Shown: positions 3,641-49,000 of the stretch, piece after piece
How the letters are laid out: the number at the start of each line of letters is the position of its first letter
Numbering within the stretch: the stretch's first letter is position 1
Assembly (NCBI GenBank): GCA_052327205.1
Contig: CM126224.1
Location: forward strand, 29,078,001 to 29,142,000
Reading direction: 5' to 3'
DNA from: Somniosus microcephalus
Taxonomy: Eukaryota
Length of the DNA: 64,000 nt
Position numbers and translations under genes: made by a program
Notes under the pieces: generated by a model
Database searches by the model: none
Seen by the model: only the letters and a program-made list of their open reading frames with translations
What the model was told of the DNA's origin: nothing

Positions 3641-3862
3641 TCAAATAAGCCTTTCTGTTGGTGGAGGCTTCATTATGTTCCACATCTCCACCCTTGCTCC
3701 ATCCTTTTCCTGCCGACTGGGGCTATAGGTTCCCTGGGTTGCCCTCTTCTTTCGCATAGTGATCACCAGAACTATGATGGCGATGATGAAGATGACAAGA
3801 CCTCCAGCTGCAGCCACAGAACCAGCGATAATGGGAGTATCATTTCTCTGGGTGGTTCCTTT
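3641..3862 (-). CDS. Terminal exon B: transmembrane + CRB1-type cytoplasmic tail (GTY, ERLI)
   Basis: gttctacaacag|AAA GGA ACC, phase 0; [73 protein letters not shown]; intact and the same 73-aa length as exon A. Confidence 0.88.
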
Positions 3863-4901: not shown

Positions 4902-5123
4902 TCATATCAAGCGCTCTTCGGGTGGCACTTTAAGGACACTATCCATCTCCAGTCGAGCCCCAGCCACTTCCTGTTGGCTTGGATTGTACGTCCCTTCTGT
5001 CTGGCGCTTTTTACGGGCAGTAAGAACCACAAAAATAAGAGCTATTACAATCAGCAGCACACTCCCACACACCACCGGCACAGCTACTGCCAGCAACGGG
5101 ACAGGGTCGGCCATTTTCCCTCT
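4902..5123 (-). CDS. CRB2: Terminal exon A: transmembrane + CRB2-type cytoplasmic tail (FERM-binding GTY, PDZ-binding ERLI)
   Basis: cattgtctttacag|AGA GGG AAA ATG, phase 0; [73 protein letters not shown]. Confidence 0.95.
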
Positions 5124-16579: not shown

Positions 16580-16699
16580 CTAGCACCAGACAAACTCTGT
16601 CTTAGGCTCCTCGGTGTCCATGTGCAGGATTAGATAGGACAAGAACTGAAAAAGATTTTGCCAAAGCAACATTGAGCAGAAGAAAGAAAGGTCGCTTAC
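16580..16699 (-). CDS. Intron read-through alternative C-terminus, CRB1-B-like (hydrophobic segment + acidic tail)
   Basis: In-frame continuation past the donor gives VSDLSFFCSMLLWQNLFQFLSYLILHMDTEEPKTEFVWC*. The WQNLFQxLSYLIL motif matches the human CRB1-B tail as recalled. AATAAA on the minus strand at 16236-16241. Confidence 0.82.
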   Translation of the reverse strand, partial: VSDLSFFCSMLLWQNLFQFLSYLILHMDTEEPKTEFVWC

Positions 16700-16826
16700 A
16701 TCAAGCTCGCACTGTTCGCCTGCGAAATTGGCTCCACAAATGCATTCAAACTTGTTGACCAGGTCCTGGCAGGTCCCTCCATTCTGGCAGGGGTTTGGGT
16801 CACACTCATTGACTTCTTGTTCACAT
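16700..16826 (-). CDS. CRB2: Crumbs-family penultimate exon (127 bp; last EGF)
   Basis: ttttttttag|A TGT GAA CAA ... GAG CTT GAT|gtaagc; CEQEVNECDPNPCQNGGTCQDLVNKFECICGANFAGEQCELD; phase 2 to 0. This frame is not in the ORF track. Confidence 0.93.
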
Positions 16827-21484: not shown

Positions 21485-21601
21485 CTTTCTCCGGTAAAGC
21501 CTGGTCTGCAGGTACAATTGGCACCCCAGAATCCATCAGTGCAAAGCCCTCCATTGTTACAGCTGAAACTCTCTCCACACTTGACTGGTGGGTACAACCA
21601 T
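21485..21601 (-). CDS. CRB2: Crumbs-family internal exon (117 bp; EGF)
   Basis: ttttttcag|A TGG TTG ... GAA AG|gtaa; WLYPPVKCGESFSCNNGGLCTDGFWGANCTCRPGFTGER; phase 2-2. The length matches the CRB2 exon as recalled. Confidence 0.92.
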
Positions 21602-22659
21602 CTGAAAAAATTAAGAATCTTTTCATTCACAAGCAAATTAGATTTCACTACAAGGGCTGTTTCATGCACAAAAACACAAGTACAATAGACTCTTGCGTGT
21701 TCAGAATGCATAACATATTTTTGTGTCATTTGTCTCCTGTCAGCTGTATGCTATTTGCACAGCATACAACACCAGTTTTGTGAGAGAAACACATCATTTA
21801 TTCAGATTCTATCCTTGCCTGAGACGCTGGAAGCTAAATATCAGCTCGTCCTGCTAATATTAACCTTTCTATATAATAGACATACAACTTGTCAGTTTAG
21901 AGCAGACAGAACAGCTCACCACAAGGACAGATGTGATATTAGTGAATTCTCCCTATATGTACTTAAAGTTTTTTCTAATTCACTTGTGTTTTCAAAGGTA
22001 CTGATGGTTTAGTTTTAAGTTTAAATAGAGAATTATAGTCCAATTCTTTTTCTTTTTCTCCAATGTTTCTCTCCAATATTCTCTCCTTATCTCGCAACCA
22101 CCCCCCCCCCCCCCCCCAAACACAGTCATTTATATTGGGATATGGTACTGTCCATCCTCGTGGTACCCTGGCTAATAAAGTGCTGAGAATTTCTATTAAT
22201 TTAATGTGAATGAATTTTTCTAATCCTGTTGCTGTTCTATATTCCTGTGTAATACACACGCCAATATTTTCATGGTGTTACAACCAGATATTCTGCAGTG
22301 CCTCAAATGCTTTGATTTTTCTATGAGGAAAGACCTCAAATATATGGAAAAAGCCAAGCCAGCATCGCTTATATTGACCAGGAATTCTATATCTGAAGCT
22401 CTGAAGTGGTACTACTTGTGCTGGAGAATTTGTAATTCTAAGTCACAAACTTGGGAAGGGAATTTTTCAGTATTTTATAAATTTAGTACTTTACTAAAAT
22501 TGTAAAGAATTTGTTTTCTTCCAAGACTTTTACTTGTATATATCCATTCCATTTGTCACATACATCAGGGTACAAATAAAACAATTTAAATGAGTTTATC
22601 GGTCAAGTACTAGGTATATTTAAATTAAAACAGCTCACCTTCATTGAATGTCAAATCTG

Positions 22660-22960
22660 TAGAAACATAGAAGATAGGAGCAGGAATAGGCCATTCGGCC
22701 CCTCGAGCCTGCTCCGCCATTCAATGCGATCATGGCTGATCATCCAAACTCAGTACCCTGTCTCTGCCTTCTCCCCATATCCCTTGATCCCTTTAGCCTT
22801 AAGAAATATATCTAACTCCTTCTTGAATATATTTAATGAATTGGCCTCAACTGCCTTCTGTGGTAGAGAATTCCACAGGTTCACCACTCTCTGGGTGAAG
22901 AAATTCCTCCTCATCTCTGTCCTAAATGGCTTACCCCTTATCTTTAGGCTGTGACCCCTG
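22660..22960 (-). mobile_element. CR1 3' fragment
   Basis: RGHSLKIRGKPFRTEMRRNFFTQRVVNLWNSLPQKAVEA. Confidence 0.85.
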
Positions 22961-23265
22961 TAAACAATCATTAACAATGGAAGAATCAGATAAAATCTTT
23001 AAATTCTTCAGTTACTAATGTATTGCTTTAAAATTCTGCTTTCTTTCCATTTAATTCCTTACAACACCATCTTCAAATACCTCCATTTAGGAATTCGATG
23101 AGCAATTTTGAGACTGTTTCATGACTCTGCTGGAAGAATTGGCAGGGCATGGGTTCAGATAAAATATTAGTCCTGTGGTGGGGCACCAACTGAGAACTGA
23201 CCAGATCAAAAAGATGTTGTCATGTCTGGTACCATAAAGATTTGTACACATTGTCCAGAGGAAAG

Positions 23266-23493
23266 TGTCATAAATCTCATCCTCATAAAGAAACTACTCA
23301 TGAAATAATGCTGGATGGCCAGCTGGTGGCGCCGTTCAAGGAGTATAAATACTCGGGCGTGGGCCTAGCTTGCCAGGGACATTTTGTAAGACAGGAACTA
23401 GTGAAGTACAACTAGACCTCCATGTTCTGAAACAAGTTGATTAAAGCCTTGCTTTATACTCAAGCCAAGTGTGTAGTGAGTTTTATTATGTCA
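23266..23493 (+). mobile_element. Solo LTR, same family
   Basis: TG...CA ends, internal gagtataaatactcggg and gattaaagc; TSD not clean. Confidence 0.7.
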
Positions 23494-23784
23494 AAGTGTG
23501 GACAGCAGCTTGTAGTGCATACTGATAGTGCAAGTATTCAGCCAAAGACAGGTAGGCTCATGTATCTGTCTCTGCTTTACCATGAATTTACAATGATCAA
23601 CTGAAGTGCGCAAGGCCTTTAAAACAACTAGCGTTAAAGTAGTAGGAATCACAGACAAAGATAACTTAGATATCAGAGGAGTCGGGCAGCAATTCCTATT
23701 CTTAATTCCTACTACTTTGGTGCTAGTTGTTTTAAATGCCTTGGTCAATTTGAGGAGTTCCAGTATGTAGAACAGAACGCTTAC

Positions 23785-24652
23785 TCGCAGTATTGTCCAG
23801 TGAACTGGTTTGGACAGTTGCAGAAGTACAAGTTGATGCCGTCAATGCAGGTCCCGCCGTTTTTACATTTGTGGTTTATGCAGTCATCTATATCATTCTC
23901 ACAGTTCATTCCAGTGTAGCCCTGATCGCAGTTACACTTGTAACCTTCCACCAAATCGCTGCAATTACCATGAATACAGAGACTGGACACGCAGTCATCG
24001 ATGTTGATTTCACACCTTGTGCCTTCCCACCCGGCAACGCAATTGCACTGGAAAAGGTCAAATAGATCTTCGCACGTTCCATTATTCTGGCATGGGTTTG
24101 AGGAACATACTTCTGTGCCAAAGCATCCAATTTGAGCCGGGCGACCGCTCACTATAACAAACTGTTCAGTGTTTGTAAAAAAATGTTGATTGAAGTAAGG
24201 AAGATATATTCCACCAATTTTAACCACTCCAAGACAACCTGTAAAATTGTTGCTTAGTGTTATATTCACATTGTCTCGAAGAAAATTTAAGTTCCCAGCA
24301 GTGACTGTGCTGGTAAAATTGGAATTTCCATTAACAATAATGATCCACTTTGATGACATCACAAAAGGCTCCACCATCGCAATGAGCACTGAATGCCACT
24401 GTCCATCTGAGATGTTGATGTTACTCGAGAGAGTGAGGCCTTCCACACTGTTCCCACTATACAATCTGAACTGCAACTGCGAATTGTGGAAACCAAACCA
24501 AACAGAATCGGCACCATTGCTGGCCTGCAGCAGAACAGCATCCATATCTCTGGTTTTGAAGCCCATGGAAATGCTTATGAGATCTCTTGTGATTAACTGG
24601 TTGCCAATGTATACAATTGGATTTTCACCTTGAAATGTTGCATTAGCATGAC
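23785..24652 (-). CDS. CRB2: Crumbs-family internal exon (868 bp; laminin G3 + 3 EGF)
   Basis: gttcacag|GT CAT GCT ... TGC GA|gtaagc; ISDGQWH, FTGCLGVVKIGGIYLPYF, then three EGF repeats; phase 1 to 2. Confidence 0.95.
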
Positions 24653-24741
24653 CTGTGAACAGCCACAAAAATAGAAGATACATTAAGTTAAGTTATCTCA
24701 TTGAAACCTGCGCTGTTGATTCATCCCCGCCTTTGGATCCC

Positions 24742-25270
24742 TTCCACAACCTCCCCTCCCGCAACCTCCCCTCCGCAACCTCCCCCTCCGCAACCTCCCC
24801 CTCCGCAACCTCCCCCTCCGCAACCTCCCCCTCCGCAACCTCCCTTTCCGCAACCTCCCCCTCCGCAACCTCCCCCTCCGCAACCTCCCCTCCCGCAACC
24901 TCCCCTCCCGCAACCTCCCCTCCCGCAACCTCCCCTTCGCAACCTCCCCCTCCGCAACCTCCCCCTCCGCAACCTCCCGTTCCACAACCTCCCCTCCACA
25001 ACCTCCCCTTCCACAACCTCCCCTCCGCAACCTCCCCCTCCACAACCCTCCCCTTCCACAACCTCCCCTTCCACAACCTCCCCCTCCAGCAACCTCCCCC
25101 TCCAGCAACCTCCCCTCCAGCAACCTCCCCTCCCGCAACCTCCCCTTCCACAACCTCCCCTTCCACAACCTCCCCCTCCACAACCTCCCCCTCCACAACC
25201 TCCCCTTCCACAACCTCCCCCTCCACAACCTCCCCCTCCACAACCTCCCCCTCCGCAACATCCCCTTCCT
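24742..25270. repeat. 15-bp minisatellite (caacctccccctccg)n
   Basis: About 35 tandem variant units; explains the spurious ATSPS/QPPPP/GEVAE ORFs. Confidence 0.95.
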
Positions 25271-25542
25271 TACACAAGGATCTGCTTTTGAAGAAACAAA
25301 GATCTGTGCAACTAACGGTTGGTATATTTGGAACCAACTGCCTCCAGTTTGGTTAATGTTTTTGATGGAAATACCCACCCATGTGAGGAACTGCCAAATT
25401 ACATTGGCTGAATTGTTATATTATAACCCAAAGTTCTACTGATATGAAGAAAAGGCTGCAGTCCAATAAGTTGCTTTAAGGGCACCTGAATCTTTTTGCA
25501 AGGCTTTGTGAAAAGCCGCCCTGGTTTTAATAAAGCTACGCA

Positions 25543-25996
25543 GTGTCAGCTGTGGCTCAGTGGTAGCACTCTCGCCTCTGAGTCAAAAGGTTGTGGGTTC
25601 AAGCCCCACTCCAGAGACTGGAGCACATAATCCAGGCTGACACTCCCAGTGCAGTACTCAGGAAGTGCTGCACTGTCGGAAGTGTCGTCTTTCGAATGAG
25701 GCCCCGTCTGCCCCTTTAGCTGGGCGTAAAAGATCCCAGGGCACTATTTCAAAGAAGAGCAGGGGATTTATCCCCGGTGTCCTGGCCAATATTTATCCCT
25801 CAACCAACATCACTAAAGCAAGATTATCTGGTCATTAACACATTGCTGTTCATGGGATCTTGCGTGCAAATTAGCTGCCGCGTTTCCTAAATTGCAACAG
25901 TGACTACACTTCAAAATAAAAGTGCTTTGGGCTGTAAAGCGCTTTGGGACATCCTGAAGCCGTGAAAGGCGCGATATAAATGCAAGTCTTTCTTTC
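25543..25996 (+). mobile_element. Near-complete tRNA-derived Deu-domain SINE
   Basis: A box tggctcagtgg, B box ggttcaagccc, Deu-like core and (tctt)n tail. Confidence 0.8.
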
Positions 25997-27019
25997 TGGG
26001 TGGGATTTTTGTCCAATTTTATTTTTTAAAATATAAGTATGGAAATATGGGGAATTTGGATAAGAAATTCTGTTTATGGAGGGACAAATCCAATGTACGG
26101 GTTTATTTAATATATTATTCAATGGAAGAAAACTCCTGTTCTAGTGAATTCACCAGCCATTCAGATAGAAAACATGGGGATTAATCTGCCTCTGTTTAGC
26201 CCATAAGGAACAGCAGAATGTCTCACAGGGGTCATTGAGAAGTGGTACCTTGCGGTCACAAAGTACTTTATCTCTGTGTACTGGTTGAATCTCTACATTT
26301 TTTCATTTCAGTTCAGCTATTGGAAACAGTCTTCTATTTCAGTCTCTCTCTCAGCGGGCATGGTCTACTTTAGTTCAGATTGACAATCTGAAGAAATGGA
26401 GAATGTAGTTGATCCTTTGGCTCAGGTATACCTTGAATGCCCCATTTAGTAATTTCCAGGTAATCCATTCTAGTTAATAGTCAGTTGTTTCTGCTTTCTT
26501 TAGTTCATCGGACTGTCAATTAACGTTCCTGATGTGATCACATTCAGTTATAACAAAGCTGATTTTAATATTGGACATTCAGTATCAGTGGCAGTTTTCC
26601 ACATGCTAAGTTTCTGTTCTTCCTGTTAGGGGAAGCACCCAAGTGTAGGCTTCGTACTTTCCCACAGGGAAGAAGAGAAAATCAGTTGCTGAATTATCAG
26701 GGACAGTTCTCAGGCTTGTGCCAGTTACTTTTGCTCCCTTACTCTGGAAAATGGTGCAAGAGTGGGAAATCTGTAGGAAAGGAAAAAAACTTAAAATGTA
26801 AGATTTCACGATACGGTACTGTCCTTGGGGGAAGATTTCCCCCCTGTTTGCTATTCTTTACAGTTATATTTACAATTTTGTTACAAGTCGCAAATGAGAA
26901 TTTTTCCCAATGTTGCTTAATTATTCCATCCCAAATTGTTTTAAAGTCTAAAATGAGAATAGTGTTTTGTCACTTTTTTTGAAAGAAGGTCTCTTGAAGC
27001 TGGTGCATTATTTTAGCCT

Positions 27020-27236
27020 TCCAGAGTATAAGCCACACCCTGATGGGCCACTGGCCTCTGAGTATAGGGCACACACTGATGGGCCCTGGCCTCTCGGAGT
27101 ATAGGGCACACACTGATGGGCCCTGGCCTCCCAGAGTATAGGGCACACCCTGATGGGCCACTGGCCTCCCAGAGTATAGGGCACACCCTGATGGGCCCTG
27201 GCCTCAGAGTATAGGGCACACACTGATGGGCCACTG
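27020..27236. repeat. ~36-bp minisatellite (agagtatagggcacacactgatgggccctggcctc)n
   Basis: Six tandem copies visible. Confidence 0.9.
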
Positions 27237-27554
27237 GTTTAATTTCATCTGAATGCCTGATGTCAGCTGTTGGGAAGTGAGCTGAACCCAGGAACTGTTC
27301 CATAGTGGAAGAAAGAAAATTAGAAGGAAATTTAGCCCTAAGTCACTCTTCTGCAAATCCTACCAACCAAGGCAAAGTAATGTTAGCAGACAACTAAAAT
27401 CAGATCTTCCAATTCTCTCCTCATCCACTGTCAGTGCATGGTATAGGGAGATGAGAGAGAAAAATTGAAGTTTAAAATAAAGAACTTAATTCAGTGTAGT
27501 GTGTACTTTGAGGTTTAATGTTTCAAAACTTGCAATAGATTTTTAAAAGACTAT

Positions 27555-28241
27555 GGCCTAGAAATTGGGTTTTGGCGCAGCGACGGCTTTAGCGCCGGAA
27601 GTTAGTGCCGGAGCTAAGTCGCGCTGGGTGGGCCAAAAATTCACTACTTCTGCGCCCAAACGGCTGCCGGCGCTGCTGAAAGCTGTTAGCGCCTGAAAAC
27701 TGGCGCTATGCGCTGAATTTCGGCGCTATTCCGGCGCTGCGGCGCCCGCTGCGGTGCGGCAGGTTCGGGAAGTGCAGGCCTCCTCCTTCCCTTAAGGAGG
27801 AGCTGCCTGCACCCGGCCGCGGCCCGCGATAATCTTTTTAAAAATGAGCCCGGCACCTCGGACAAGTGCCGGGCTTGCTTCTGTTCCGGGGGGGGGGGGG
27901 GGGGAAGTCCGGGGAGGGAGCTGCGGCCAGGCGGGCGGCGGGAAAGCGGCCGGCCGCCGCGGGGCCTTTAATGCGCCGGCGCAACGTTCTGTAAGGCACC
28001 TCTGCCAGAACGTTGCTTGCGGCTGCCACGGGCGAGGCGGCCGCAACTCAATTTCCGAGTTCGGGCGGGTTACCATGGCAACCGGGACGCTGCGCACACC
28101 GATGACGTCATCGGTGCCGGCGCAGCGCTACCGGCCTAACGCCGATTTAGGGCCCCTGTCAATTTCAAAACTGGCCATAACTTCGCCGCTAGGCCCTCTA
28201 GCGCCTCAAAAGCGGCGCTAAGGCCAGTGAATTTCTAGGCC
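27555..28241. mobile_element. GC-rich PIF/Harbinger-like MITE
   Basis: 12-bp TIR ggcctagaaatt / aatttctaggcc with 3-bp TSD TAT (27552-54, 28242-44); CpG-rich interior. Confidence 0.72.
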
Positions 28242-28310
28242 TATATTTTTAATGTTTCCTGGTATCTGAATATTTGCTTATACAATTAAATGAATTCTTG
28301 CAGTTCTTAC

Positions 28311-28476
28311 ATTCATATCCACCTGGAAGGTTCTGACAGTGACATCCTGCAGGGCATGGATCAGTCTCACACCACACTTTCTCCGCACAGGTTCTTCCAG
28401 TGAACGCCTGTGGACATTGACATTCAAAATCGTTCCACGTCACAGTACAATTGCCTCCATTTTGGCAAGGAACATC
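28311..28476 (-). CDS. CRB2: Crumbs-family internal exon (166 bp; EGF repeats)
   Basis: ttttatgcag|GAT GTT CCT ... TAT GAA T|gtaaga; [22 protein letters not shown]...GGYE; phase 0 to 1. Confidence 0.94.
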
Positions 28477-29334
28477 CTGCATAAAAGCAATAAGTATGTC
28501 GGTCACACAAACCAATTTCTTTTTCACTATATATCATTTTGTCACATCTGTCAGTAGTAACTACACCATCTGAGTACAATATATAATTTAGTTTATGTTT
28601 CCTACATTACAACAGCGACTTCACTTCAAAAGTACTTAACTGACCGTAAAGTGGTTTGGGACGTCCTGATTTCATGAAAGGCGCTATATAAATGCAGATC
28701 TTTCTTTTGTTAATAGATTGTAATGAGAATGTGCAAGGATCAGTTTTACTTTTGTGTTTGAAAATGCCAGTGCAATGAGAGTGAATCTCTTGAATATTCA
28801 CAGCAATGCTTTTTAGAGAAAGTTTCAGCTCACACCCAGCAGGGGTAGTTTAACCAGACTACAAGCTAACGATGTTTACTTGTTGCAATACTCCAACCTA
28901 CAACATGGCTCTAACACCAGCAGTACATGAATAAGTGTGGAAGATTAGGGGGAACTCGGTGCTGCCTTGAAACAAGCATCTCCTTTAGTAAAAGCTTAAC
29001 ATTTTTCAGGTTCTAGGAAAACATTAAAAATAAAATGAAAATTTGCTAGGAAGTTCATACATTTTGGATAACACCCTCTATTTTGAATTACCCATAACTA
29101 TTGCACTATTTCACCACTGCTAAGGAAATAGAGATTACAAATTGGCCAACTTTCCACATAGTCAGTCTGCACAAATAGAGATAGGATTTTACATGTTAAA
29201 GCCTCTTCTTCAAAGGATCAGCTGTTCATTTCTAGTTAATATCCATGTTTCTACTTTTAAATTTGATATTTACTTACTTTAACTTCTACATGTTTATTTT
29301 CTTCCCTTTTATTTTCCAGTCCAATGTTCACAAT

Positions 29335-29730
29335 AAGTAGCTTGACTCAGTTGATAACACTCTTGTTTCTGGAGCTCAAATGTTTTGGGTTCAAGTCCCG
29401 CTCCAGGATTTGAACACATTAAACTAGGCTTGGAAGAGCGTTACATTGTTAGAGGTGCCGTCCTTCAAATGAGACATTAAACCAAGGCCTTGTATTCCTG
29501 TTTTTCTTGTTCAGGTTGACATTAAAGATCCTATGGAACATTCCCTCCCAACCAGTTCCACCAGAAGGTTCAATAGTTATTCATCTCATTACACATTCAT
29601 CATTGTGGTATCTCGCGTGCCAAATTGGCTGCTGTCTATCCCTACATAATAGTGATTGCATTTTTAAAAAAAATCACTGTTTATGTAACACTTTGCGATG
29701 TTTCTGAGAGACATGATTAACATGCTACGT
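29335..29730 (+). mobile_element. Diverged tRNA-derived SINE of the same superfamily
   Basis: tgactcagttg...gggttcaagtccc head; gaggtgccgtccttc...gagacattaaaccaaggcc core similar to 2540-2915. Confidence 0.6.
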
Positions 29731-29852
29731 TTACCTATTCAAACAGAAAACTACTAATTTGTAGAGCAGTAGCACAGCATCCTTCATTTTAAACGATATA
29801 TAAACCTAAACCCATTGGTCACACAAAGTATACAGACAAGTTATTTTCTTAC

Positions 29853-30412
29853 CACACAAGAATTATCACTGATGCAGTCCTTGATCACATTTACAAGTGT
29901 TTTATTGTTGTAAACACCCAGGGGTGAGGTGTAATTCCAGATTTCCAGTGGGTAAAACTCCAGTTGGTTATCGTTGAGCCTTATGTCCTGCAGGCAGCCC
30001 TTGAAAGCTCCTCCCCATGCAGCAGGCTCCTCATTCGGACCTTGGCCAACGTGGACAGTGTCGAATGGTTGAATCTTCACAGAAGACAATAGAAAATCTA
30101 GCAAGATAACATCTGATTCGCTAACAGTTACCCAGACTTCATCAAAGCGAATTTCTATCAGTCGTTTAATGCCATCGGCGAGGTTCATAGATGACTCTAT
30201 CATCGTAGTTTTTGTCTCAATACAAATTCTGCTGTTGTTCAGATATATAGTGAGATAAGGAGTTTCCCCCTTGCTGAGTTGTAATATGAAGCCATTTGCC
30301 TTTAGTGTGCGAATGAAAAAAGAAATAACAAATTTTGTGCCGGGATCATCAGTAATAATAAAAGAGGCAGAGCTGCTTGAATTCTTATTGCCGAATGTCG
30401 CAGAGATGTATT
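29853..30412 (-). CDS. CRB2: Crumbs-family internal exon (560 bp; laminin G2)
   Basis: ttctgcag|AA TAC ATC ... TCT TGT GTG|gtaaga; SFFIRTLKANG and WGGAFKGCLQDIRLN motifs; phase 1 to 0. Confidence 0.94.
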
Positions 30413-36228: not shown

Positions 36229-37950
36229 CACTCCAGCTACCATAATGGTACTTTTGAGTGAAACTTCCAATTTATACTAAATTGTTAGCAATTATGAGCT
36301 GCGCACTACCCAAACTCTCGTCCTCCAGAACCCTCGGAACCGGTTGGGAGCCTTCATCCAGTTAATGAATATGCTACGCAATTCTGGAATTTTTTGTTCT
36401 TACTGAAAATTTTTTATTTGGGGAATAGTTCTCCCTAAACAACTTATCTGCTCTCTTTTAAAAAAAAATTATGATATTGTTACTGTTCCTCCCCAGAAAC
36501 CTATAGAGATTAAGGGTGCCATGAGAATACTTGAAAAGGACATAGCAGCAGATGCACAGCATCCTGGAGCTGATTTCCGTCTCGGACGTACATTGGGCAG
36601 GTGGCGGGTGGGGCATATGTTGTGCTGTGCCCGCCCCCTGACGTCGATGGGAGGCCCGATCCACTTTCATGACTGGACCTCATTTAAATTCAGGTGGTGA
36701 GCTGCCAGTGCAAATCGTGCTGCTTGTAGGGTGCTCGCTGTTTTGAGTGTGTGGGAAATATGACCGGGTAGAGACTGAAGTGGGCCTGCAGCAGCACCTT
36801 AAGGGGTAGGGCGTCAATGGAGCAGCACATTAAAGTGGCAGGGAAAAATGTAGAGAGCACATCAAGGAGCAAGGAATTGAACTTAAGGGAGCCTCTAAAA
36901 CTTAAGAGTCTCAAAAATAATGAAGCAGAAAGTCATTGCCAGACTTGCTTCTGGTTTATCCCGACTGCATAATCCCTTTAAGTAGCGCTGCAAATAGCCG
37001 CCTTCCGATCTGTAATGCCCACGGTTTTGTGGACGGGTTGAGGAAAAAGTCAGGACAATGCTGATTGGCATGAAGATGGCGTTTGTGCCCTGATAATGTC
37101 ATAGATCCCTCATTTTAATATATTAATTATGCCCCATTGGCTTTGGGCAGGAGTGGTCATTGTACAAATTTAGGCCCACCCATAACTCGCAATGGGCAGA
37201 ACTCCCGAGCAGTCAGCAACTTTACTGTGATTTTCATCCCACTACAAAACACAGGGCAGTAGGGAGACGGAAAGTGTACCTTTTTAATATGTTTCATTTC
37301 AAAATGTTTCACTTTTGTGCTTAGAAATATATCTGATACCTTCATTTTCAAATCCATATCTAAATTCTAAGTATCTGATAAAAGGCATGGTGTGATATAC
37401 AAGATTAGGCATATCCTTAAGAGGTCTAGAAGCTGCCCTCTAGTATGATTTTAGTCTTGTGGACTAAATTGTTTAGAGTGAAGTGATCATTTTACTTTTA
37501 TTAAAGAACCTCCCTCACTGTGCTAGGCTAATGAGTAGTAATTTAATCATTTATGTGGTCCTTAGAAAGTGGAAATCAAAATCATGTTGATACATAGGTT
37601 CTGTGACAGTTGCAGTCTAACTTAAAAAATTGGGAGGAAAACTTGTTAACCTTTGTATTTATCAATAAAGTAATGAATGTATTCTTGTGCAAAATGGCTT
37701 TTTATTTGCACCCATGAGCCTGACCTGACTTTCTCCTCATCCTCAACACTCGTGAATTGTCTACCAATTCCAGCAGTTTTTCACAGTGGAGCATGTTGGG
37801 GTTAGGGCAAGAATTGACCAAACTCATCACAACCATGACAGTTGAGTTGGCTTCACCTGGTCATAAATGCAACTCTGATCTCAATTGTTTCCCAATATCT
37901 CTCCTTAAAAAAAACACAATAAAATAAAATTAATGTTCCAATATGCTTAC

Positions 37951-38886
37951 CGTGAAGGCACAAGGGACCTGCATATGGCCGGAAACAATCGCACTTATAG
38001 TTCGTCCACAGATCCACACACTTCCCATTACTGTTACATGGGTTCTGACGGCACCAGTTTGTCCTTTCACAGCCAAGTGTAAAACTCCATGCCATATTTT
38101 CTGAAATTGTTTGTGGCAATATAAGACTCTTATCAATTTCCAAATCCTGAAAGCAACCAGTAAAATGATCCTGAATTGAAAGGTACGTTCCTGGGTAGCC
38201 ACCAATGTGCGTTGTCCTAAATGAATCCAGTGAAGGAAGGGTAGCCGCACTAATGTGCTTCGAGTCTGAGCAAGTGTCGTTTGGACAACTAGGATGAGAT
38301 AAGTTTACCAGGAGGTCTTTCCCCAGAAGAACCGTTAACTGATGCCACTCACCATCATTAACTTGATGAATGAATGTAATGCTAATTATCTGACCATTTA
38401 TCACAGCTATGGACATTAGCTGGCCGCTATAAAGTTGAATATGTATGTATTCATCGAGTAGATCTCCTCGATAGATTAATAGCACATTTGGTATGGTTGT
38501 CCTAAAGCGTAGACTGATGCTAATTGGCTCATCATCTGCAGCTCTCCTGCTCTGATTACCATCTGGCATTTGTACAATCACATAGCCGCTGATTAAGGAG
38601 AACGTTGTTGAAGTTGAACAAGTAGCATCATAAAAGCCAGGAGGACATTTGCAGATGTAGCTGTGAGTGTTATCCACCAAGTTTGGGATGCACGTTGCTC
38701 CATTGTGACAGCTGTGCTCAAGACAGCCAGCCAGTTGAATTGAACAGTTCTTTCCTCCCCACGTGACACCATCTTCATCCATTGGGGGGCAATGGCATGT
38801 GTAGTCTGCAATCACATCTTTACAGGTGCCTCCATTTTCACAAGGACTGTTCTCGCATTCATTGATATCAACTTGACATATCACCC
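37951..38886 (-). CDS. CRB2: Crumbs-family internal exon (936 bp; 2 EGF + laminin G1 + EGF)
   Basis: ttttttcctctcag|GG GTG ATA TGT ... CTT CAC G|gtaagc; ORF 37853-38884 with SLRFRTT, VNDGEWH and FTGCFQDL laminin-G motifs; phase 1-1. Confidence 0.95.
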
Positions 38887-39772
38887 CTGAGAGGAAAAAA
38901 TATCATCTTAAAACAGCTTCCTTGTTCTTTTAAAACAATATATCTTATATTCCTGCTTTTAAGTTCTGAATATAAATTATTATTTTGTAAAATGTCCCTG
39001 CCTTAGTGCTGTGGGATTCATCATCACAGTTACATTTTGAAGTGCATCGAGCTTGTTGATTGTTTCTTTCCTTCATTAGGGATAGACTAGTAACAGCTAC
39101 CTTGTCAAACAGAACTGTTTCACTCTGATTTAGACAAATATGTAGTGAACTCTTGTTTAAAGGACTTCCAAACTTAAAACCAAAACATATTAATAATATA
39201 TGTACATACCTTTTAATCCTCGATGCTGGTAGCTTGTGGCTTCCTGGGCCAGCTATATTAGTTTTCTGCTTACAAACTAACTGAAACAAACACTGATATT
39301 CAAGCTCCTCAACTGACAAGACATGCTTCATTGCTGTAATAACCATGTGGTCCAAAAAAAAATCTTCTGTTTGCCCTTTTCCCACTCTAGTTTCTGTTCC
39401 TTTCTCTTACCTCTCCTATTTTTAATTTTCTACCGCATATGTTTGAAATATGTTACTTGCCTATTTTTCCTTCACCTCCAGGGTCCCAGTTTCCATATTG
39501 TAGGTGGGAGCCAAGTGAAATTTTTTTTTAACTTTCTTTGGCTGAAATCTAGCTCCAAAGGTCAGTTTTTAGATCATTAAGGCTCAATAGTCTAACTGTT
39601 GACATTATATATCTTTGACATAATTTTCTCGCGTTAAATAGTGGAATCCTACCACACAATGAGTTATCTTGTCCGCTGCTCAGGCAGAGTGATCATAGCC
39701 TGTAAAAATAACAAGTATTTCAAAATCTTGATGGCACAAGATACTGGAGCTCCAACACAACAGAATGGCAGA

Positions 39773-40290
39773 AGGTGATGGTGGGGGATTCAGCGATGGT
39801 AATGCCGTTGAATGTCAAGGGGAGGTGGTTAGACTCTCGCTTGTTGGAGATAGTCATTGCCTGGCACTTCAGTGGTGCGAATGTCACTTGCCACTTATCG
39901 GCCCAAGCCTGAACCTCGTCCAGGTCTTGTTGCATGCGGGGTAATGACGGATGAGTGACTTCAGTTATGTGGAGAGACTGGAGTGGGGAGATGAGAATTT
40001 TATGTTTTTACAGCGTGAGTTGTTGTAATCTGTTTGAAAGGGTGGTAGAAGCAGATTCAATAACGTTCAAAAGGGAATTGGATAAATAATTAAAAAGGAA
40101 AAACTTGCAGGGCTACGGGGGAAAGAGCAGGGAGCGTGGGACTAATTGGAGAGCTGTTTCAAAGAGCCAGCACAGGCATGATGGGCTGAATGGTCTTCTT
40201 CTGTGCTGTATGAATCTCTAATGAGCTGGGATTGTTCTCCTCAGAGCAGAGAAGGTTAAGGGGAGATTTGATAGAGGCGTTCAAAATTGC
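39773..40290. mobile_element. Adjacent HER1-like (minus, 39773-39940) and CR1 (plus) fragments
   Basis: MQQDLDEVQAWADKWQVTFAPLKC, followed by CR1 3' end gggtggtagaagcagattcaa...gggctgaatggtcttcttctgtgctg. Confidence 0.7.
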
Positions 40291-40601
40291 TTTTCTTTTA
40301 CCACCTACTCCATGAAGAGAAAAATCACCTTGGCATATTCTTTCTGCACCTCCTACTATTGTAGAAGAGTGGCTGACAGAGTTTTGGGGAAACTACTTGC
40401 CCTTTTACCTAGGTTATGGTGCAAGATGAAAGAGGAAAAATTGAAAATGGTTTCTTTTTTACTTTACAGTGCCATATTTCACACAAATTACTGGTGCGCA
40501 CCCATTGCAGTAGCAAGCTACCAGATTGAATCCGGAGAGAGAGGACCACAATCATACATAAGATTGTACTTTCACATCAGAAAAATCTCAGAAGTGCTGT
40601 T

Positions 40602-42050
40602 ACATAAGAACATAAGAAATAGGAGCAGGAGTAGGCCAATCGGCCCCTCGAGCCTGCTCCACCATTCAATAAGATCATGGCTGATCTGATCCTAACCTCA
40701 AATCTACTATCACTCTCCATCCCACCCGAACCCATGTGATCTCCCGGGAGAGGCGAAAAACCAGATAAAAAACCCAATGGCCAATTTGGGAGAAAAAATC
40801 TGGGAAATTCCTCTCCGACCCATCTAGGCGATTGAAACTCGTCCAGGAGATCACTCTGTCCCTGTATTTCCTACAGTACTTACCTTTTGTAAAAGGTGAT
40901 CTCCACCCCAGCCAGGAACAGGCCCAATTTACTCTTGAAGGACACCTAGCTGGCAGCCTGTTCGATGTCTCCACTAATCCCTGTGAATAGAACCATCTCC
41001 TGAAATCTAACACAGAATTAGAACACAAGAAGTAGGAGCAGGACCAGGCTACCCGGCCCCTGGGCCCGCTCCACTACCCACAGGGCCATGACCATTCCGA
41101 ACCTAGACTCATGTCCAATTTCCTGCCCGCTCCCCGTAACCCTTAATTCCCTTTACTTCTAGGAAACTGTCTATTTCTGTTTTAAATTTATTTAATGATG
41201 TAGCTTCCACAGCTTTCTGGGGCAGCAAATTCCACAAACCTACTACCCTCTGAGTGAAGAAGTTTCTCCTCATCTCAGTTTTGAAAGAGCAGCCCCTTAT
41301 TGTAAGATTATGCCCCCTAGTTCTAGTTTCACCCATCATTGGGAACATCCTCACCGCATCCACCCGATCAAGCCCCTTCACAATCTTATATGTTTCAATA
41401 AGATCGCCTCTCATTCTTCTGAACTCCAATGAGCAGAGTCCCAATCTACTCAACCTCTCCTCATATGTCCACCCCCTCATCCCCGGGATTAACCGAGTGA
41501 ACCTTCTTTGTACTGACTCGAGAGCAAGTATGTCTTTTCTTAAGTATGGACACCAAAACTGTATGCAGTATTCCAGTTGCGGTCTCACCAATACCTTGTA
41601 CAACTGCAGCAATACCTCCCTGTTTTTATATTCTATCCCCCTAGCAATAAAAGCCAACATTCCATTGGCCTTCTTGATCACTTGCTGCAACTGCATACTA
41701 ACTTTTTGAGTTTCGTGCACCAGGACCCCCAGATCCCTTTGTACTACAGTACTTTCCAGTTTCTTGCCATTAAGATAATAACTTGCTCTATGATTTTTCC
41801 TGCCAAAGTGCATAACCTCACACTTTCCAGTATTGTATTCCATCTGCCAAATCTCTGCCCACTTACTTAGCCTGTCTATGTCCCTTTGCAGGTTTTTAAT
41901 GTCCTCCTCACTCACTACTTTCCCTCCCATCTTTGTATCATCTGCAAACTTTGATATGTTACACTCGGTCCCCTCCTCCAAATCGTTAATATAGATTGTA
42001 AAGAGTTGGGGACCCAGCACTGACCCCTGCGGAACACCACTAGTTACTGT
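40602..42050 (-). mobile_element. CR1 LINE 3' portion with open 303-aa ORF2 C-terminus and composite 3' UTR
   Basis: ORF 41109-42020 LGPQLFTIYINDL...FADDTK...VRPQLEYCIQFW...GIKGYG is uninterrupted. Confidence 0.9.
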
Positions 42051-44139
42051 TGGCAGCCTTGGTTTAGATAGATCCAGGCACTTTTCATATTATGCTCAGG
42101 AAAGCATCAGAGCTCTGATAATGTCCAATAGCTGGTAGATATAATAATACTTTAGGGTTGTCTAATTCAACCGCTTCCAAGACACAAACTGTGTTTAATT
42201 TTAAGGAAACTATCTGTTGAATTGTTTTTATTTTATTTGACACTTAAAAAAAAATGTATGCACAACTCTCTCCCCCTCCACTGGAATTAAATAAGATTTA
42301 TGGGTGGATTGTTAAGTCCACATTTATAATAAACAAAAATATCAGCAATCAGAGCATAGTGAGAGGTTCAGTACAAAATCATTACCTGGAGACATTATAT
42401 GATTCCTCTCTCAATCTTCTGATATTGTACATGTCATTAGATCGACCGACTATCGAAAGAAAACCTTTATGTTGTTTTCAATTGACTTGTTACTCTGTGA
42501 TCTCAAACTATTTTTTGAACTGTGTTTCTAATGTGGAAAGCCCCTGATGGGCGACCGTCACTTGTGCAATAGCTTCAGCTTGTAAAATGCAACAATTAAA
42601 ATGTGTCCATCAGGCCAATATATCTTCATCTAAGTGCAAGACTCTTAAACAGCAAAATACCAGCCCTGCCCTCATTTTTGATATTTCTATATTAATCACA
42701 TTTTAACTTTTAATAACTTATTTTAACTTGCAGGGTGTTTTTTGCGAGTTATATTTCTCTCTTGATTATTTTTGAGTCTAGCACCATGTTTTACATCATT
42801 GTTTTTCTTCACTGGAGCATTTTCTTTTGTGATGACCTGCCCAGTCAGCTCGGTTTTAATGCCACCTTGGTAACATTTGCTTTTTGTTTAACGCCAGCAG
42901 CCAACCTCAGCAATTACACCCTACACCTCCCTTACACTTCCTGTTTCAAACCCTGTAATTTGGTTTCCAACCAGCACAGATACTGCTCTTGTCCAAGTCA
43001 ACAACAATATTCTCTGTGACAGTGACTGTAGTCCATTTTTGCTCCTCGTAGCTGGCTGCTGCTTTTGACATTGTTGACCATTGTATCCTCCTCCAAAGTC
43101 TCTCCTTGGCTTCGTAGCACTTTCAGCCGTGTAACTGCCTTTTCAAAATCCCTCCTTATCTCTTCCCTGTCTGATTTCAAAATCCTATTAAAGTCTTTAC
43201 TTTTCAACTGCTCGTTAGCTCCTGCCCTTAAATCAACTCAACTCAACCTGTCCTTCACCCTTCCACTTAGTGTCCATTTCATTCCCCAATCTGTAAAGCA
43301 CTCTGAGGCGTCTTTCTGACATAGTATAATCTATTTTGTATCCTGTTTCTGTACGTATTGTCTACTCTTCACATTCTGCACCATCACCATTGAAAATCCT
43401 GCTAATGCTTTTTTTTTAGAATTAAATAAAAATTATATTGACATTTAACACTGTATTTGTATACAGTTATACAACTTTATGAAGCAAATCAATATATCTA
43501 GCTTTTGTTTGGGCTTTTTCCCTTGTTCCTCGCTTAGCTGAGTCCCCTCCACCCCCCCTTAATTTACTCCATTGTTAAATGGTATAGATAAGGTCATTCA
43601 AGGTAAGCCAAGGCAAAGAACAGGGGACACCGACTAAAATTGATGTCATCAATTGTCTTCCAGGTGGAGTGGTGAAAATGAAAACCTTTGATTCATTCAA
43701 GATCCAGATAAACGATGTGGTGGGGAGATTACATTTATTCTGTTTAGATGGTTGAGCTAACATGGCCAAAAATGTCTCCCATCTATATTCATCTTGTGAT
43801 CAAAAGAATGGAACAGTTCAGACATGGGCATTGCTACAGGCACACCTTGACCAACTAGTTAGGAATTACACTTAAGTGTTCTGGGCAGAGACCTGTCCTT
43901 GGGCCAGTTTTCTCCCGCCTTCCAAAAAATAACCAGATAGACTGATGAAACTTGTCTTCAGGAGAACCTCAAGTAGAATTGTCTGTTGAGAATGGAAGTT
44001 GAGCTGTAGGACTTCCTAATGTGGAGTCCATGCTGTAGCATTATGTACTAGATTGTTCCAGCTTCATTATCATTTTTGTTTGAGGGAAAATGAATGTAAC
44101 AGTCATGACAAATGTCATCTTTCAGACAAAATTCCTTTT

Positions 44140-44748
44140 AAACAAAATAACAACAGAAAATGCTGGAAAAACTCAACAGGCCAGGCAACATCCGTGGAGA
44201 GAGAAATAAAGTCAACGTTTCGGGTCAAAACCCTTCCACGGAACTGAGAGAAAAGGCAGGAAATGAAACAAAAGGCAGTTTGGGGGCTGGGAAATGGGGG
44301 AGGGGATGAAAGAAGAGACATTACGAGATATTCAAGGTGAGACGAGATAGTAATAGGACAGGTAAAGAAACAGACAATGGCTCTAGATGAAGTGTGAAAT
44401 GCGCTGGCAGAGTGAGAGACAGCTGCCATGTGGGAGAGAGAAAAAAGGGAAAGTCACAAACCAAAAGTGTGGATAAAAAATATAAAAATATAATAGGGGC
44501 CGAGGTTATGATCTGAAGTTGTTGAACTCGATATTGAGTCGGGAAGGCTGTAAAGTGCCGAATCGGAAGATGAGGTGCTGTTCCTCGAGCTTACGGTGAG
44601 CTTCCGTGGAACAATGCAAGAGGCCGCAGACAGTGAGGTCTGAGTGGGAATGGAACGATGAATTGAAATGACAGGAGATCGGGGTCACCCTTACAGACTG
44701 AACGGAGGTGTTCCGCAAAGCGGTCACCCAATCTGTGTTTGGTCTCTC
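44140..44748 (-). mobile_element. Penelope-like element fragment (GIY-YIG endonuclease C-terminus + terminal repeat)
   Basis: GETKHRLGDRFAEHLRSV and HFNS..HS.SDL...RKLEEQHLIFRFGTLQPSRLN, frameshifted. Confidence 0.8.
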
Positions 44749-45360
44749 CTTTTAAACAACCTATTTTCTCCATATCAATGTAGTCTCACCACTGCTATTC
44801 TTACAATTGGTTTTCATTTTGTTTTAAACAATTTTCTTTCTCCCCCTATCCCAAATGTTTGCCTTATTGCAATGTTCCCTTGGTTTTTGAGGAAGGTGAA
44901 TGCTCTCTGCTGTGGGATTCTTCACATTCATCAGTATGAGTCTGTGATCTCCCAATGGAACACACAGTGAAGCAGGGACAGCTGCTTTAATTTCTTTCCC
45001 ATCCTTGAACCCCATCCCTGGAGCTACCCAGCTGGCAGCAGTAACTGTTTTTATGTACAATTTTTCAATGATTCGGATGTTGATAACTGTGGAAAGGCCT
45101 TAACATAAAATAAAAGTTATTTGGACTTAAAGTGTAGGAATCAGAAAAAATCGTTCAGACCATCCACCTTGCTCTGTTATCCAAACCCTGACTTAGGTCC
45201 TGATCTGACCATTTTTCATCTCCTACTCAGACCCTTGTCTAATTTGTATTGAACCAGGAATTGATCCAAGCATTGTGAATGCTTCAAGTGAGCCAACACC
45301 ACTGATCTGGTAACCATCTGTTCCACAAGTCAACAAACATTAAGCACAAATAAGTTATTT

Positions 45361-45752
45361 CAACAACAACAACTTGCATTTATATGTCACCTTTAACGTC
45401 CCAAGGCGCTTCACAGGAGCGTTAGCAAACAAAATTTGACACCAAGCCACCATAAGGAGATATTAGGGTAGATGAGGTAGGGTTTAAGGAGCGTCTTAAA
45501 GGAGGAAAGAGAGGCGGAGAGGTTTAGGGAGGGAATTCCAGAGCTTGGGTACTCGGCAGCTGAAGGCACGGCCGCCAATAGTGGAGCAATTAAAATCAGG
45601 GATGCGCAAGAGGCCAGAATCTGAGGAGCGCAGATATCTCGGAGGGTTGCAGGGCTGGAGGAGGTTACAGAGATAGGAAGGGGCGAGGCCACGGAGGGAG
45701 TTGAAAACGAGGATGAGAATTTTAAAATCAAGGCGTTGCTCAACCAGGAGCC
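45361..45752 (-). mobile_element. L2-type LINE 3' end
   Basis: Homologous to 10628-10950; caacaacaacttgcatttatat tail. Confidence 0.75.
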
Positions 45753-46404
45753 AGTGATTAATTTACAGCTTCCTTGTGTGATTAGCCAAGTCCTCTGATT
45801 CTTGTAATCTAGTTTGCACAAGGTACCTGTTGACATCTAGATTTAATGGCAGCTTGGCTCAGTTGTTGGCACTGTTGCGTCTGAGCCAGAAAGTTGAGAG
45901 TTCAAGCCCCATTAAGCTGACAATTCAATGCAGCATTGAGAGTTATATGAACCTTTTTTTTACAGTCAAAACATTACACATTTGCAATTAAAAAAAAAAA
46001 AGTTTTCAAAATAAATTGCATTATCCAGTGGGACCCACCAGAACCTATAATTGTATTACAGCCATCAGGCGGCCCTTTAGAGGGGAACCGTACTGTTTGT
46101 GGAATAAGCAGAACAGCATTCAGATGATTCCTTTTATTCGGACATTACTGCACATCAATAAACACTCCATGCATCTCGTTCATTCATACTGTAGAAGAGT
46201 CTACATCAACATTTTTTTGTTAGGTCAGTTTTATGCTGTGATTTGTACCCCCAGGGATCTGAATGAATGCCTGTGATTGACTTACCATCACAAAAGGTAA
46301 AAGTAATCCTTCACCATATTCATCTGAGCTGTGTTTAAACCAAGGTCTTCGACTTCCTCTCTGGCTCAGTGGGTAAGTACACACTGTTACTCAACGGTTG
46401 CAGC

Positions 46405-47130
46405 TAGAACATAAGGACAGGAATAGGCCATTCAGCCCCTCGAGCCCGTTCTGCCATTCAATGAGATCACGACTGATCTTTATCCTAACTCCACCCACCT
46501 GCTTTGGCTCCACATCCTTTTGTACCCATGGCTAGCAAAAATCTATCCATCTTAAATTAAAAATGATTAATTGAGCTAGTTTTGAAAACAAGGTTTTTGA
46601 GGAAGAGAGTCCCACACTTCTACTACCCTTTGCTCTGATTATAAGGTTATGTCCCATTGTCCTAGACTTCCCCACCAGCAAAAATAGTTTCCATATTCCC
46701 AATCAATTCCTTTCCAAATCCTAAAAACGTCAATCAAATCACCTCTTAACCTTCTATATTCCATGGAATACAAGCCTAGTTTATGTAATCTCTCCTCATA
46801 ATCTAACCCTTGGTGCCCTGGTAACATAGAAACATAGAAGATAGGAGCAGGAGTAGGCCATTCAATGAGATCATGGCTGATCATCCAAACTCAGTACCCT
46901 GTCCCTGCCTTCTCCCCATAACATTCTGGTGAATCTGCACTGCACTCCTTCCAAGGCCAGTTTATCCTTTCTAGGTGCGGTGCCCATAACTGTACACGGT
47001 ACTCCAGATGTGGTCTAACCAGGACTTTGTACAGCTGCAGCAAAAATTCCTCCTTTTTATATTCTAGCCCTCTAGTTATAAAGGCTAAAATTCCATTAGC
47101 CTTTTTGATTATCTTTTCTACCTGACTATT
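46405..47130 (-). mobile_element. CR1 fragment containing a nested ~90-bp CR1 3' end
   Basis: LGLYSMEYRRLRGDLI; the nested piece is flanked by taacat at 46822-46827 and 46919-46924. Confidence 0.75.
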
Positions 47131-47304
47131 ACTGGTCAGGTCCCAGGTTCAGTCCCTTGCCCTTTGCTCAGTTTTGTGAGGGTGCACCAATTGGAGTAAC
47201 AAGAAGCTTAATTTTCCTGGGCTAAAGAGGCAAAAAGTCATCCGCAGTTGCTGTTTGCTATCCAATGTCCCCTGCTGCCAAAGTATGTGAGTGTGGATTT
47301 CAGG

Positions 47305-47495
47305 TGAGGACATAAATAAAAACAGAAAATGCTGGAAATACTCAGCAGGTCAGGCAGCATCTGTGGAGAGAGAAACAGAGGTAACGTTTCAGGTTGATGA
47401 CCCTTCGTTCTGACCTGCTGAGTATTTCCAGCATTTTCTGTTTTTATTTCAGATTTCCAGCATCTGCAGTATTTTGCTTTTGAGGACATAAATAA
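47305..47495. mobile_element. Palindromic Penelope-like terminal-repeat insertion
   Basis: Perfect 40-bp inverted repeat 47314-47353 / 47410-47449; flanking 15-bp direct repeat tgaggacataaataa. Confidence 0.75.
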
Positions 47496-48684
47496 CATTG
47501 GCTCTGATGTCCATCCCTCTCCATGTTTTTAACAGACTGGCTGCTTGTATTATCTAGTCTGGCCACTTGGATAGAGGGCAGAGGGCAGCCAGTATCCCAG
47601 ATGTGAGTCACGAGAGAAGAGAAAATTGGTATATGTAGTATAATGTAGCAGGTTCGAGAAGTGAAAGGACAATATTTCATTGACTTGTGATTAGGTGGGG
47701 CTCTTTATGTAACTTGCCTATTCTCCATTCCCTCCTCCAACAAATGGTTCTTGCGGAGCCCTTTCCTGATTTCCGCCCTCCGAAGCATTTGTATTCGCTA
47801 CTGGCATTTTCAAACAGTGTAGATTTTATGCTAATTCATTAAAAAAAAAATTGTCCTCTTTGTGTTGGGGTTTTCAGTGGCCTGAGACAAGCATCCATGT
47901 GAAAAACTTTAAAAGTATGGATTTAAAACATGGAAATTTTCACACGATCTCTCAATACCATGTTGTGTTTTTGAAAAGAGAGCCAACATTTAACACCGCC
48001 AAAGTCCCTCCTCCCTACTGGATGCCCCCTTTCCACAGAACCCTTTCCTATATTAAAAAAGCACAAAAAATAAACTCTGCGATTGGAAAATCAGCCAAAT
48101 TTTCAAATTGTAAAAGAAATTCAATGTTCACGTGGAATATATGACCAGTCTTTTATACTTTTACCCACATGGAATAGTGTTAGTGCATCTAATGCTGAAA
48201 AAGTGGAATGTGGATACAATATAACTTTATACTGAATACTAATTGAGTTTAGACTGTATCCCTTTAAAAACTTTCATATAAGCTTCAATTTTAAAATGGA
48301 ATCAATCAATACTTCACAGAAAATTCACTGGCTCTCTAGTTAGTGAATTTGCATTTAAAATAAATACAAAGATAATGACTAAACGATTGCGGTCATCTGG
48401 CTTATTTTTGAAGATCCAACAAAATAACACGATATTGTTCTAAACGCAAATTGGAAAGAAACAAAATCGAGCTTTTCAGCAAAAGGCTAAACTGCACGTA
48501 AAAGTACATTGGATGGATCGGATTTAAAACGTTAAACAAACTAAAACAACAGCACAGTCTCTTTAGTGCACATCTTTCCGGGAACATGGCACTCCATTAA
48601 ACTGTAACAATAGGTTAAAATTAAGCTCCTGTTTCACAAAAAGGCAGTCTTAAATGTAAAATCAAATAATGATGACACCAGTAC

Positions 48685-48736
48685 CTGTAATGAGAAAAAG
48701 TCCATGAAAGAACACCTGAGAAAGGAAAGATTTCAT
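48685..48736 (-). CDS. Putative alternative first coding exon (signal peptide) of a short CRB1-B-like isoform
   Basis: accacaATG AAA TCT TTC CTT TCT CAG GTG TTC TTT CAT GGA CTT TTT CTC ATT ACA G|gtactg = MKSFLSQVFFHGLFLIT-G. The phase-1 donor joins the 38886 acceptor in frame (...LITGVICQVDINEC). A at -3. Confidence 0.72.
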
Positions 48737-48819
48737 TGTGGTTTTCCTGTCTGCATTTGTGCAAGTGTCCGACTATAACAACACACCGAGTGTGTGTGCA
48801 CTATCCTGGTGCCAGTCAG

Positions 48820-49000
48820 GCAAAAGCGATTAGTAATTAAACCAACCAGTATAAAGAGGGCTGCACTTTAATATAAGTTGGTCTCGCTAGTAATCCGCCT
48901 CTTTATCCCTTCCCAGCTGGCTCCTGTCGGGACTGACATGAAGAATGCTCGTCTCCTCTCTTTCTAGCATGTTATATATTGCTACAAAGGCCAATCACCA
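48820..49000 (-). promoter_or_regulatory. Candidate photoreceptor-type internal promoter
   Basis: TAATCC 48891-48896, CTAATCG (minus) 48827-48833, TAATTA 48834-48839, TATATTAAA (minus) 48867-48875 and CCAAT 48991-48995, all just upstream of the putative alternative first exon in sequence with no recognised repeat. Confidence 0.5.

Follow-up and report, generated by a model that had tools for sequence, protein, structure and literature searches.

The 16.6-kb intron before the first laminin-G exon of the CRB2 gene of the shark Somniosus microcephalus probably harbors an alternative first exon (48736-48685), from which a short Crumbs protein would be made, likely in adult photoreceptors. Coordinates refer to the window, the whole stretch of 64,000 nucleotides that was analyzed (assembly GCA_052327205.1, contig CM126224.1, positions 29,078,001 to 29,142,000), and the exons described here are read from its minus strand. 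Judged part by part, use of the exon seems very likely to us, and expression in photoreceptors, given that the exon is used, seems likely by analogy with known short crumbs forms. The sequence points to a likely unannotated alternative first exon, an addition to the short crumbs starts already known.

A candidate internal first exon in phase with the first laminin-G exon

The candidate exon contributes 52 coding nt (48685..48736, minus strand), or 17 codons plus a phase-1 base, and encodes a predicted signal peptide. Read from the ATG at 48736 to the last exon base at 48685, it translates as MKSFLSQVFFHGLFLIT followed by the first base of a Gly codon, and it is bordered by the splice donor GTACTG (48679..48684, minus strand; CAG/GTACTG). 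This donor is in phase 1, which is also the phase of the acceptor TCAG/ at 38886, where the frame reads on into VICQVDINEC. The acceptor belongs to the first laminin-G exon of CRB2 (37951..38886, minus strand; 936 nt), which serves the long form and would equally serve the predicted short form. In the long form, the EGF exon that immediately precedes the host intron lies at 55517..55630 (minus strand), and the intron itself (55516-38887) was measured at 16,630 nt. The original prediction of a 52-nt ATG-to-donor segment joining VICQVDINEC in frame, within an intron of 16.6 kb, is thus confirmed, with phase 1 on both sides of the junction.

By sequence reading, the leader carries Lys2, with Gln7 and His11 within its core, and ITG or VIC are possible cleavage sites. 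Its hydrophobicity (best 13-residue mean, 2.21) compares with 1.95-2.45 for fish short-CRB2 leaders and 0.44-1.63 for likely intron read-ins. A genome search with the 501-nt candidate region returned a single match, the region itself. An internal signal-peptide first exon of a short crumbs isoform, as first proposed, is the best reading of this segment, judged by its phase, its position and the likeness of its leader to those of fish short CRB2.

The host gene

Sequence comparisons identify the host gene as CRB2, with CRB1 on a separate contig, C3. In a 31-row quick tree, the first laminin-G exon groups with shark, ray and chimaera CRB2 (SH-aLRT 99), and the crumbs exon of C3 groups with CRB1 (SH-aLRT 95). 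A 15-row quick tree of the third laminin-G exon, from which two insect rows were left out for short cover, split off CRB1 (99) and placed the window with cartilaginous-fish CRB2 (96). Furthermore, the best 120 of 526 matches to the first laminin-G exon all belong to CRB2-type clusters, several of them misnamed "crumbs homolog 1-like". The second crumbs gene of the genome, on C3, is 39% identical over this exon and is the best match for swan CRB1. STRBP, DENND1A and LHX2 are presumably the conserved neighbors of CRB2; the 20 kb beyond the 3' side of the gene hold only retroelement-like ORFs. Since the gene is CRB2, its direct counterpart is zebrafish crb2b-sf, and CRB1-B is the paralogous case. 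The parallel with CRB1-B drawn originally therefore holds for the equivalent position of the exon but not for the identity of the gene, which the trees assign to CRB2.

Toward the 5' end of the gene, CRB2 exon 2 (equivalent to window 80649-81368; L015) lies 17 kb past the window end, and a simple pattern search of the 60 kb examined beyond the window did not reveal exon 1. Several shark and ray CRB2 records (P0123, P0128, P0131 and P0150) join exon 1 directly to exon 3, skipping six EGFs, and the phase-1 EGF modules of CRB2 take any phase-1 leader. CRB2 records of sturgeon, paddlefish, bichir and reedfish (P0015, P0019, P0160, P0279 and P0285), of about 1670-1680 aa, have a different, longer N-terminus, which is possibly a third start.

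Likeness of the leader to fish short-CRB2 leaders

In our judgment, an ATG-to-GT stretch that arose by chance in a long intron and is never spliced is an improbable explanation of the segment. To weigh this, candidates were defined as ATG-to-phase-1-GT segments of 12-30 codons, and were compared with five reference leader sets and with 200 shuffled introns. The bare ATG-to-GT pattern is common, because 119 such candidates occur in the CRB2 intron, 15 of them hydrophobic; the excess over chance lies in the likeness to fish short-CRB2 leaders. Chance is also favored by a donor that is off consensus (as far from it, however, as the CAG/GTACCA of the constitutive upstream exon), by upstream motifs near their chance frequency and by the absence of the shark leader from all 46 CRB2 records examined from sharks, rays and chimaera. 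Against it, the shark leader ranks first of the 119 under all five reference sets, and first among 857 candidates on both window strands, where it scores 20.0 versus 9.7 for the next independent candidate. Its length and phase are identical to those of a crb2b-sf-type leader, and a parallel segment exists in CRB1.

The shuffled introns give results that depend on the reference. Their maxima matched the score of the shark leader in 2 of 200 cases with P0263 alone as reference, in 9 of 200 with reedfish P0164 alone and in 152 of 200 with denticle herring (Denticeps) P0392 alone. With eight short models, likely artefacts included, the count was again 2 of 200, and with six fish CRB1 leaders it was 40 of 200. 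The reference P0263 is independently anchored: the published crb2b-sf primer translates to FGRMRG, which matches characiform P0259 across the start of the P0263 leader. Consequently, the 18-residue leader of P0263 can be equated with the crb2b-sf exon without recourse to the shark sequence.

The shark leader, at 18 residues, has the same length as those of piranha P0263 and reedfish P0164, with 5/18 and 7/18 identities, respectively, and it shares 6/18 with mudminnow (Umbra) P0234. It is important to consider that P0164 and P0234 were picked as references after the likeness was noticed, and that 6/18 identities are also found, at an offset, with ray long-form N-termini. We place modest confidence in the homology of the shark leader with the crb2b-sf leader, for which the case on 18 residues is good, not overwhelming.

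In the fish models P0263 (crb2b, 1013 aa), P0164, P0234 and P0392, a short hydrophobic leader is joined at the same EGF; several of the fish short CRB2 models may be prediction artefacts. Among the 12 matches inspected of 150 in a profile search of 50% representatives, a hydrophobic leader on a short CRB2-type model was present in one further fish (P0461) and in no shark or tetrapod. Likewise, none of the 455 proteins collected is a tetrapod short CRB2 model with a leader of this kind. Two skate models (P0140 and P0141) and a chimaera model (P0159, 1008 aa), the three among the cartilaginous-fish records whose start lies close to this junction, were considered as support and rejected: their N-termini are unrelated and weakly hydrophobic, have acceptor-like ends and resemble intron read-ins, and that of P0159 shares 2/18 identities with the shark leader.

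Putative promoter and transcript data

The motifs originally reported before the candidate exon were all located in the sequence, and singly they occur near chance. They comprise TAATCC (48891..48896, plus strand), the adjacent homeodomain cores TAATTA (48839-48834) and CTAATC (48833-48828) on the minus strand (48828..48839), a TATA-like box TATATTAAA (48867..48875, minus strand) with a second at 48978, and an uninformative CCAAT motif (48991..48995, plus strand). TAATCC is given as the CRX consensus site in the relevant part of PMC10896975. Per 300-nt window of the 64 kb, the background rate is 12% for TAATCC, 13% for two TAATC, 57% for CCAAT and 3% for two TATA-like boxes; the joint set, chosen post hoc, is found in 11 of 1256 overlapping windows (0.9%). 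With the TATA box at 48875 in use, transcription would start at or just before the TAATTA and CTAATC cores. The motifs are compatible with a photoreceptor promoter, in which CRX/OTX may have a part; dependence of the short form on the TAATCC site is conceivable, though we would not quite expect it. At the DNA level, the internal segments of CRB1 and CRB2 align poorly over their 400-nt regions, with no conserved motif block, and the 300 nt before the ATG of the CRB1 candidate contain TAAGCC and lack TAATCC.

Among the joints listed for the interval 37900-51000 in four runs presumed to be RNA, of unrecorded tissue, none connects 38886 with 48685; these data were swamped by repeats, the four belong to 14 runs that are presumed to be RNA, and 4621 joints and 8728 loose ends exist besides those listed. 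Contigs X2 and X5 include the laminin-G exon and extend 1581 and 811 letters further, which agrees in length with the long form and not with the short start. They are no argument for the absence of the short form, because contigs drop rare forms and the tissue is unrecorded. Read depth in the bin with the candidate exon was 0.84, 0 and 0.41, like other intron bins. A DNA contig of a relative (X18) covers 47446-49441 with about 95% identity, a level equal to that over the laminin-G exon, and the relative is therefore too near to show constraint. The introns (39650-42270, 44020-47510 and others) contain many decayed LINE-type fragments, which draw nearly all aligned contigs.

These observations also bear on whether the segment, as a true homolog of the crb2b-sf exon, could be a decaying or barely used relic in the shark, or be used outside photoreceptors. 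Such a state would agree with the missing annotation in related species that have transcript-guided gene models and with a promoter that shows no clear cluster of CRX sites. It would also agree with crb2b-sf itself, which the parts of PMC7044448 on this form describe as low before adulthood and rising in the adult eye. Against it, nothing in the ATG, the open frame, the hydrophobic core, the phase or the donor is damaged, and such intactness since the split from bony fishes would be hard to keep without selection. We hold a relic, or use elsewhere, to be unlikely.

First exon or cassette

A first exon is favored over a cassette because the frame is closed upstream of the candidate ATG and no good acceptor precedes it. 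An internal cassette exon of the long form is highly improbable: the sole phase-1 AG, 14 nt before the ATG, does leave the frame open, but its pyrimidine tract is poor (41%, versus 47-94% at nine used acceptors), in the 36 cartilaginous-fish records matched at this junction, the two EGF exons follow each other directly in 34 and the other 2 start there, and a hydrophobic insert would split an EGF repeat.

In the preferred reading, as an alternative first exon, transcription would begin some 110 nt ahead of the ATG, from a promoter within the 16.6-kb intron. The stretch in between includes a short out-of-frame upstream ORF (48733..48756, minus strand), whose stop overlaps the main ATG. Ribosomes would bypass its weak ATG, with C at -3, and start at the main ATG, which has A at -3. 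The out-of-frame upstream ATG lies in an identical 7-base word before the CRB2 and CRB1 internal exons (window 48757-48750 and L008:2286-2292); in both, its context is weaker than that of the main ATG, and the sharing may be due to chance.

Predicted products and 3' ends

The 52 coding bases would be spliced in phase 1 onto the first laminin-G exon, with loss of the first 11 EGF repeats (by a count on P0122, the closest relative). The leader would be cleaved after Gly18, or after Cys21, an unpaired residue left from the skipped EGF, and the product would be a type I membrane protein with three laminin-G domains. Downstream, the shared middle exons (30412-29853, 28476-28311, 24652-23785 and 21601-21485; together within 21485..30412, minus strand) lead to three possible ends. 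In the first, the last EGF exon (16826-16700) would be read through into a tail of the CRB1-B type (16581..16826, minus strand), a tail also carried by the chimaera CRB2 record P0158, which ends in it, and by CRB1 records. In the shark, this tail is open and conserved in the DNA, and its use is a prediction. The second is the transmembrane/ERLI exon of the usual CRB2 type (QTEG; 4902..5123, minus strand), and the third is a transmembrane/ERLI exon of CRB1-A type (ATQG; 3641..3862, minus strand), used in shark records P0121 and P0132. Exon models built by coordinate reproduce the product lengths first put forward: a B-tailed protein would have 981 aa, and one that ends in either ERLI exon 1015 aa.

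CRB2 records of sharks, amphibians, reptiles and birds make use of both ERLI exons. Among the 455 proteins collected, 241 have only a QxEG tail and 75 only an AT[QH]G tail, and the latter include many bird, reptile and amphibian CRB2 records. By default, the short form would have an ERLI-type tail (1015 aa), as in fish short CRB2 models, and would bind the polarity complex like Crb2b-sf. A 981-aa B-tailed form, which would lack those motifs like CRB1-B, is possible, but we are rather doubtful that the short start and the B tail are combined in one product.

Comparison with known short crumbs forms

The major retinal product of CRB1, a human blindness gene, is CRB1-B, and the cone mosaic of fish is shaped by crb2b-sf. 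Zebrafish Crb2b-sf was reportedly described by Zou et al. in 2012. According to the passages on this gene in several papers, intron 7 of zebrafish crb2b contains a second start, which gives Crb2b-sf without the first 11 EGF repeats (PMC7044448, PMC12510390, PMC11129452, PMC5786287). The shark case resembles it in the CRB2 lineage of the gene, in a start within the intron before the first laminin-G exon and in the removal of 11 EGF repeats. Additionally, the 18-residue leader is matched in length and phase, the shark exon being known as DNA only. In contrast, the passages on Crb2b-sf describe it from teleost crb2b only, whereas the shark has a single CRB2, and this gene, with its B-type tail and an additional ERLI exon retained, has three possible ends. 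The bony-fish short CRB2 models P0164, P0263, P0234 and P0392 share the short hydrophobic leader and the EGF join with the shark, but those that are complete end in QSEG/ERLI instead of the B tail, and all are database predictions.

CRB1-B has a unique 5' exon before exon 6, as given in the relevant sections of Ray et al. 2020 (PMC7335077), and the acceptor side of mammalian CRB1-B, IHC.ED..EC, is present in P0193 and P0223. Shark CRB2 is similar in having a candidate 5' signal exon and a putative promoter before the large laminin-G exon, as well as a B-type read-through tail. Unlike shark CRB2, CRB1-B is encoded by the paralog CRB1, here on C3, and its short start is coupled to the B tail, a coupling that is only predicted for shark CRB2; the likeness of the shark leader to fish CRB1 short models is also weak, as reflected in the shuffles with CRB1 leaders. 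In both zebrafish and mammals, the known short forms are made in adult photoreceptors, and by the same pattern the shark form would likely be made there, possibly with a part for CRX/OTX at TAATCC.

In the sections concerned, the literature handles crb2b-sf and CRB1-B separately (PMC11129452, PMC5786287), and the part of a 2026 CRB1-B preprint that was examined does not mention crb2. A short CRB2 form in cartilaginous fishes was not found in the literature searched, and an earlier mention is possible. The coordinates given here define exactly a junction (38886/48685) that lacks a counterpart in the examined cartilaginous-fish annotations.

The shark CRB1 paralog and a possible early origin of the short form

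The equivalent intron of shark CRB1 on C3 measures 15.6 kb and contains, before the first laminin-G exon, a candidate CRB1-B first exon (C3:261446819-261446861; L008:2320-2362). Of the candidates with a good donor, this 43-nt segment (donor CAG/GTAAAT) is the most hydrophobic. By ranking, it is first of 126 under four of the five reference sets and second under the fifth. Its leader ends in ITG, as the CRB2 leader does; the leaders of shark CRB1 and CRB2, when compared directly, show a weak likeness, with rank 2 of 126 in one case and a tie for first of 119 in the other.

The 3' ends of shark CRB1 likewise include a B tail and two ERLI exons (C3:261525464-261547268; L009-L011). The first ERLI exon (261546572-261546811) belongs to the QTEG type, the usual one in CRB2, and the second to the CRB1-A type (ATHG). 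The order B tail, QTEG-ERLI, AT[QH]G-ERLI is common to both shark genes. Across CRB1 and CRB2, ERLI exons of like type are identical at 25/37 positions and those of unlike type at 19-24/37, a small margin.

A broader reading appears possible, although short of probable. The vertebrate crumbs gene before the split would have had two starts and three ends (B, QxEG-ERLI and ATQG-ERLI), all kept in both shark genes. CRB1-B and crb2b-sf would then be one ancient photoreceptor isoform, and shark photoreceptors would make a 981-aa "CRB2-B" beside CRB1-B. If this is true, the short photoreceptor form predates the CRB1/CRB2 duplication, and mammalian CRB1 and CRB2 each retained a subset of the ancestral ends. 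Remnants of the short-form exon would be worth seeking in tetrapod CRB2. As a minor observation, the shark CRB1 intron before the laminin-G exon appears to open with GC instead of GT (C3:261433842).
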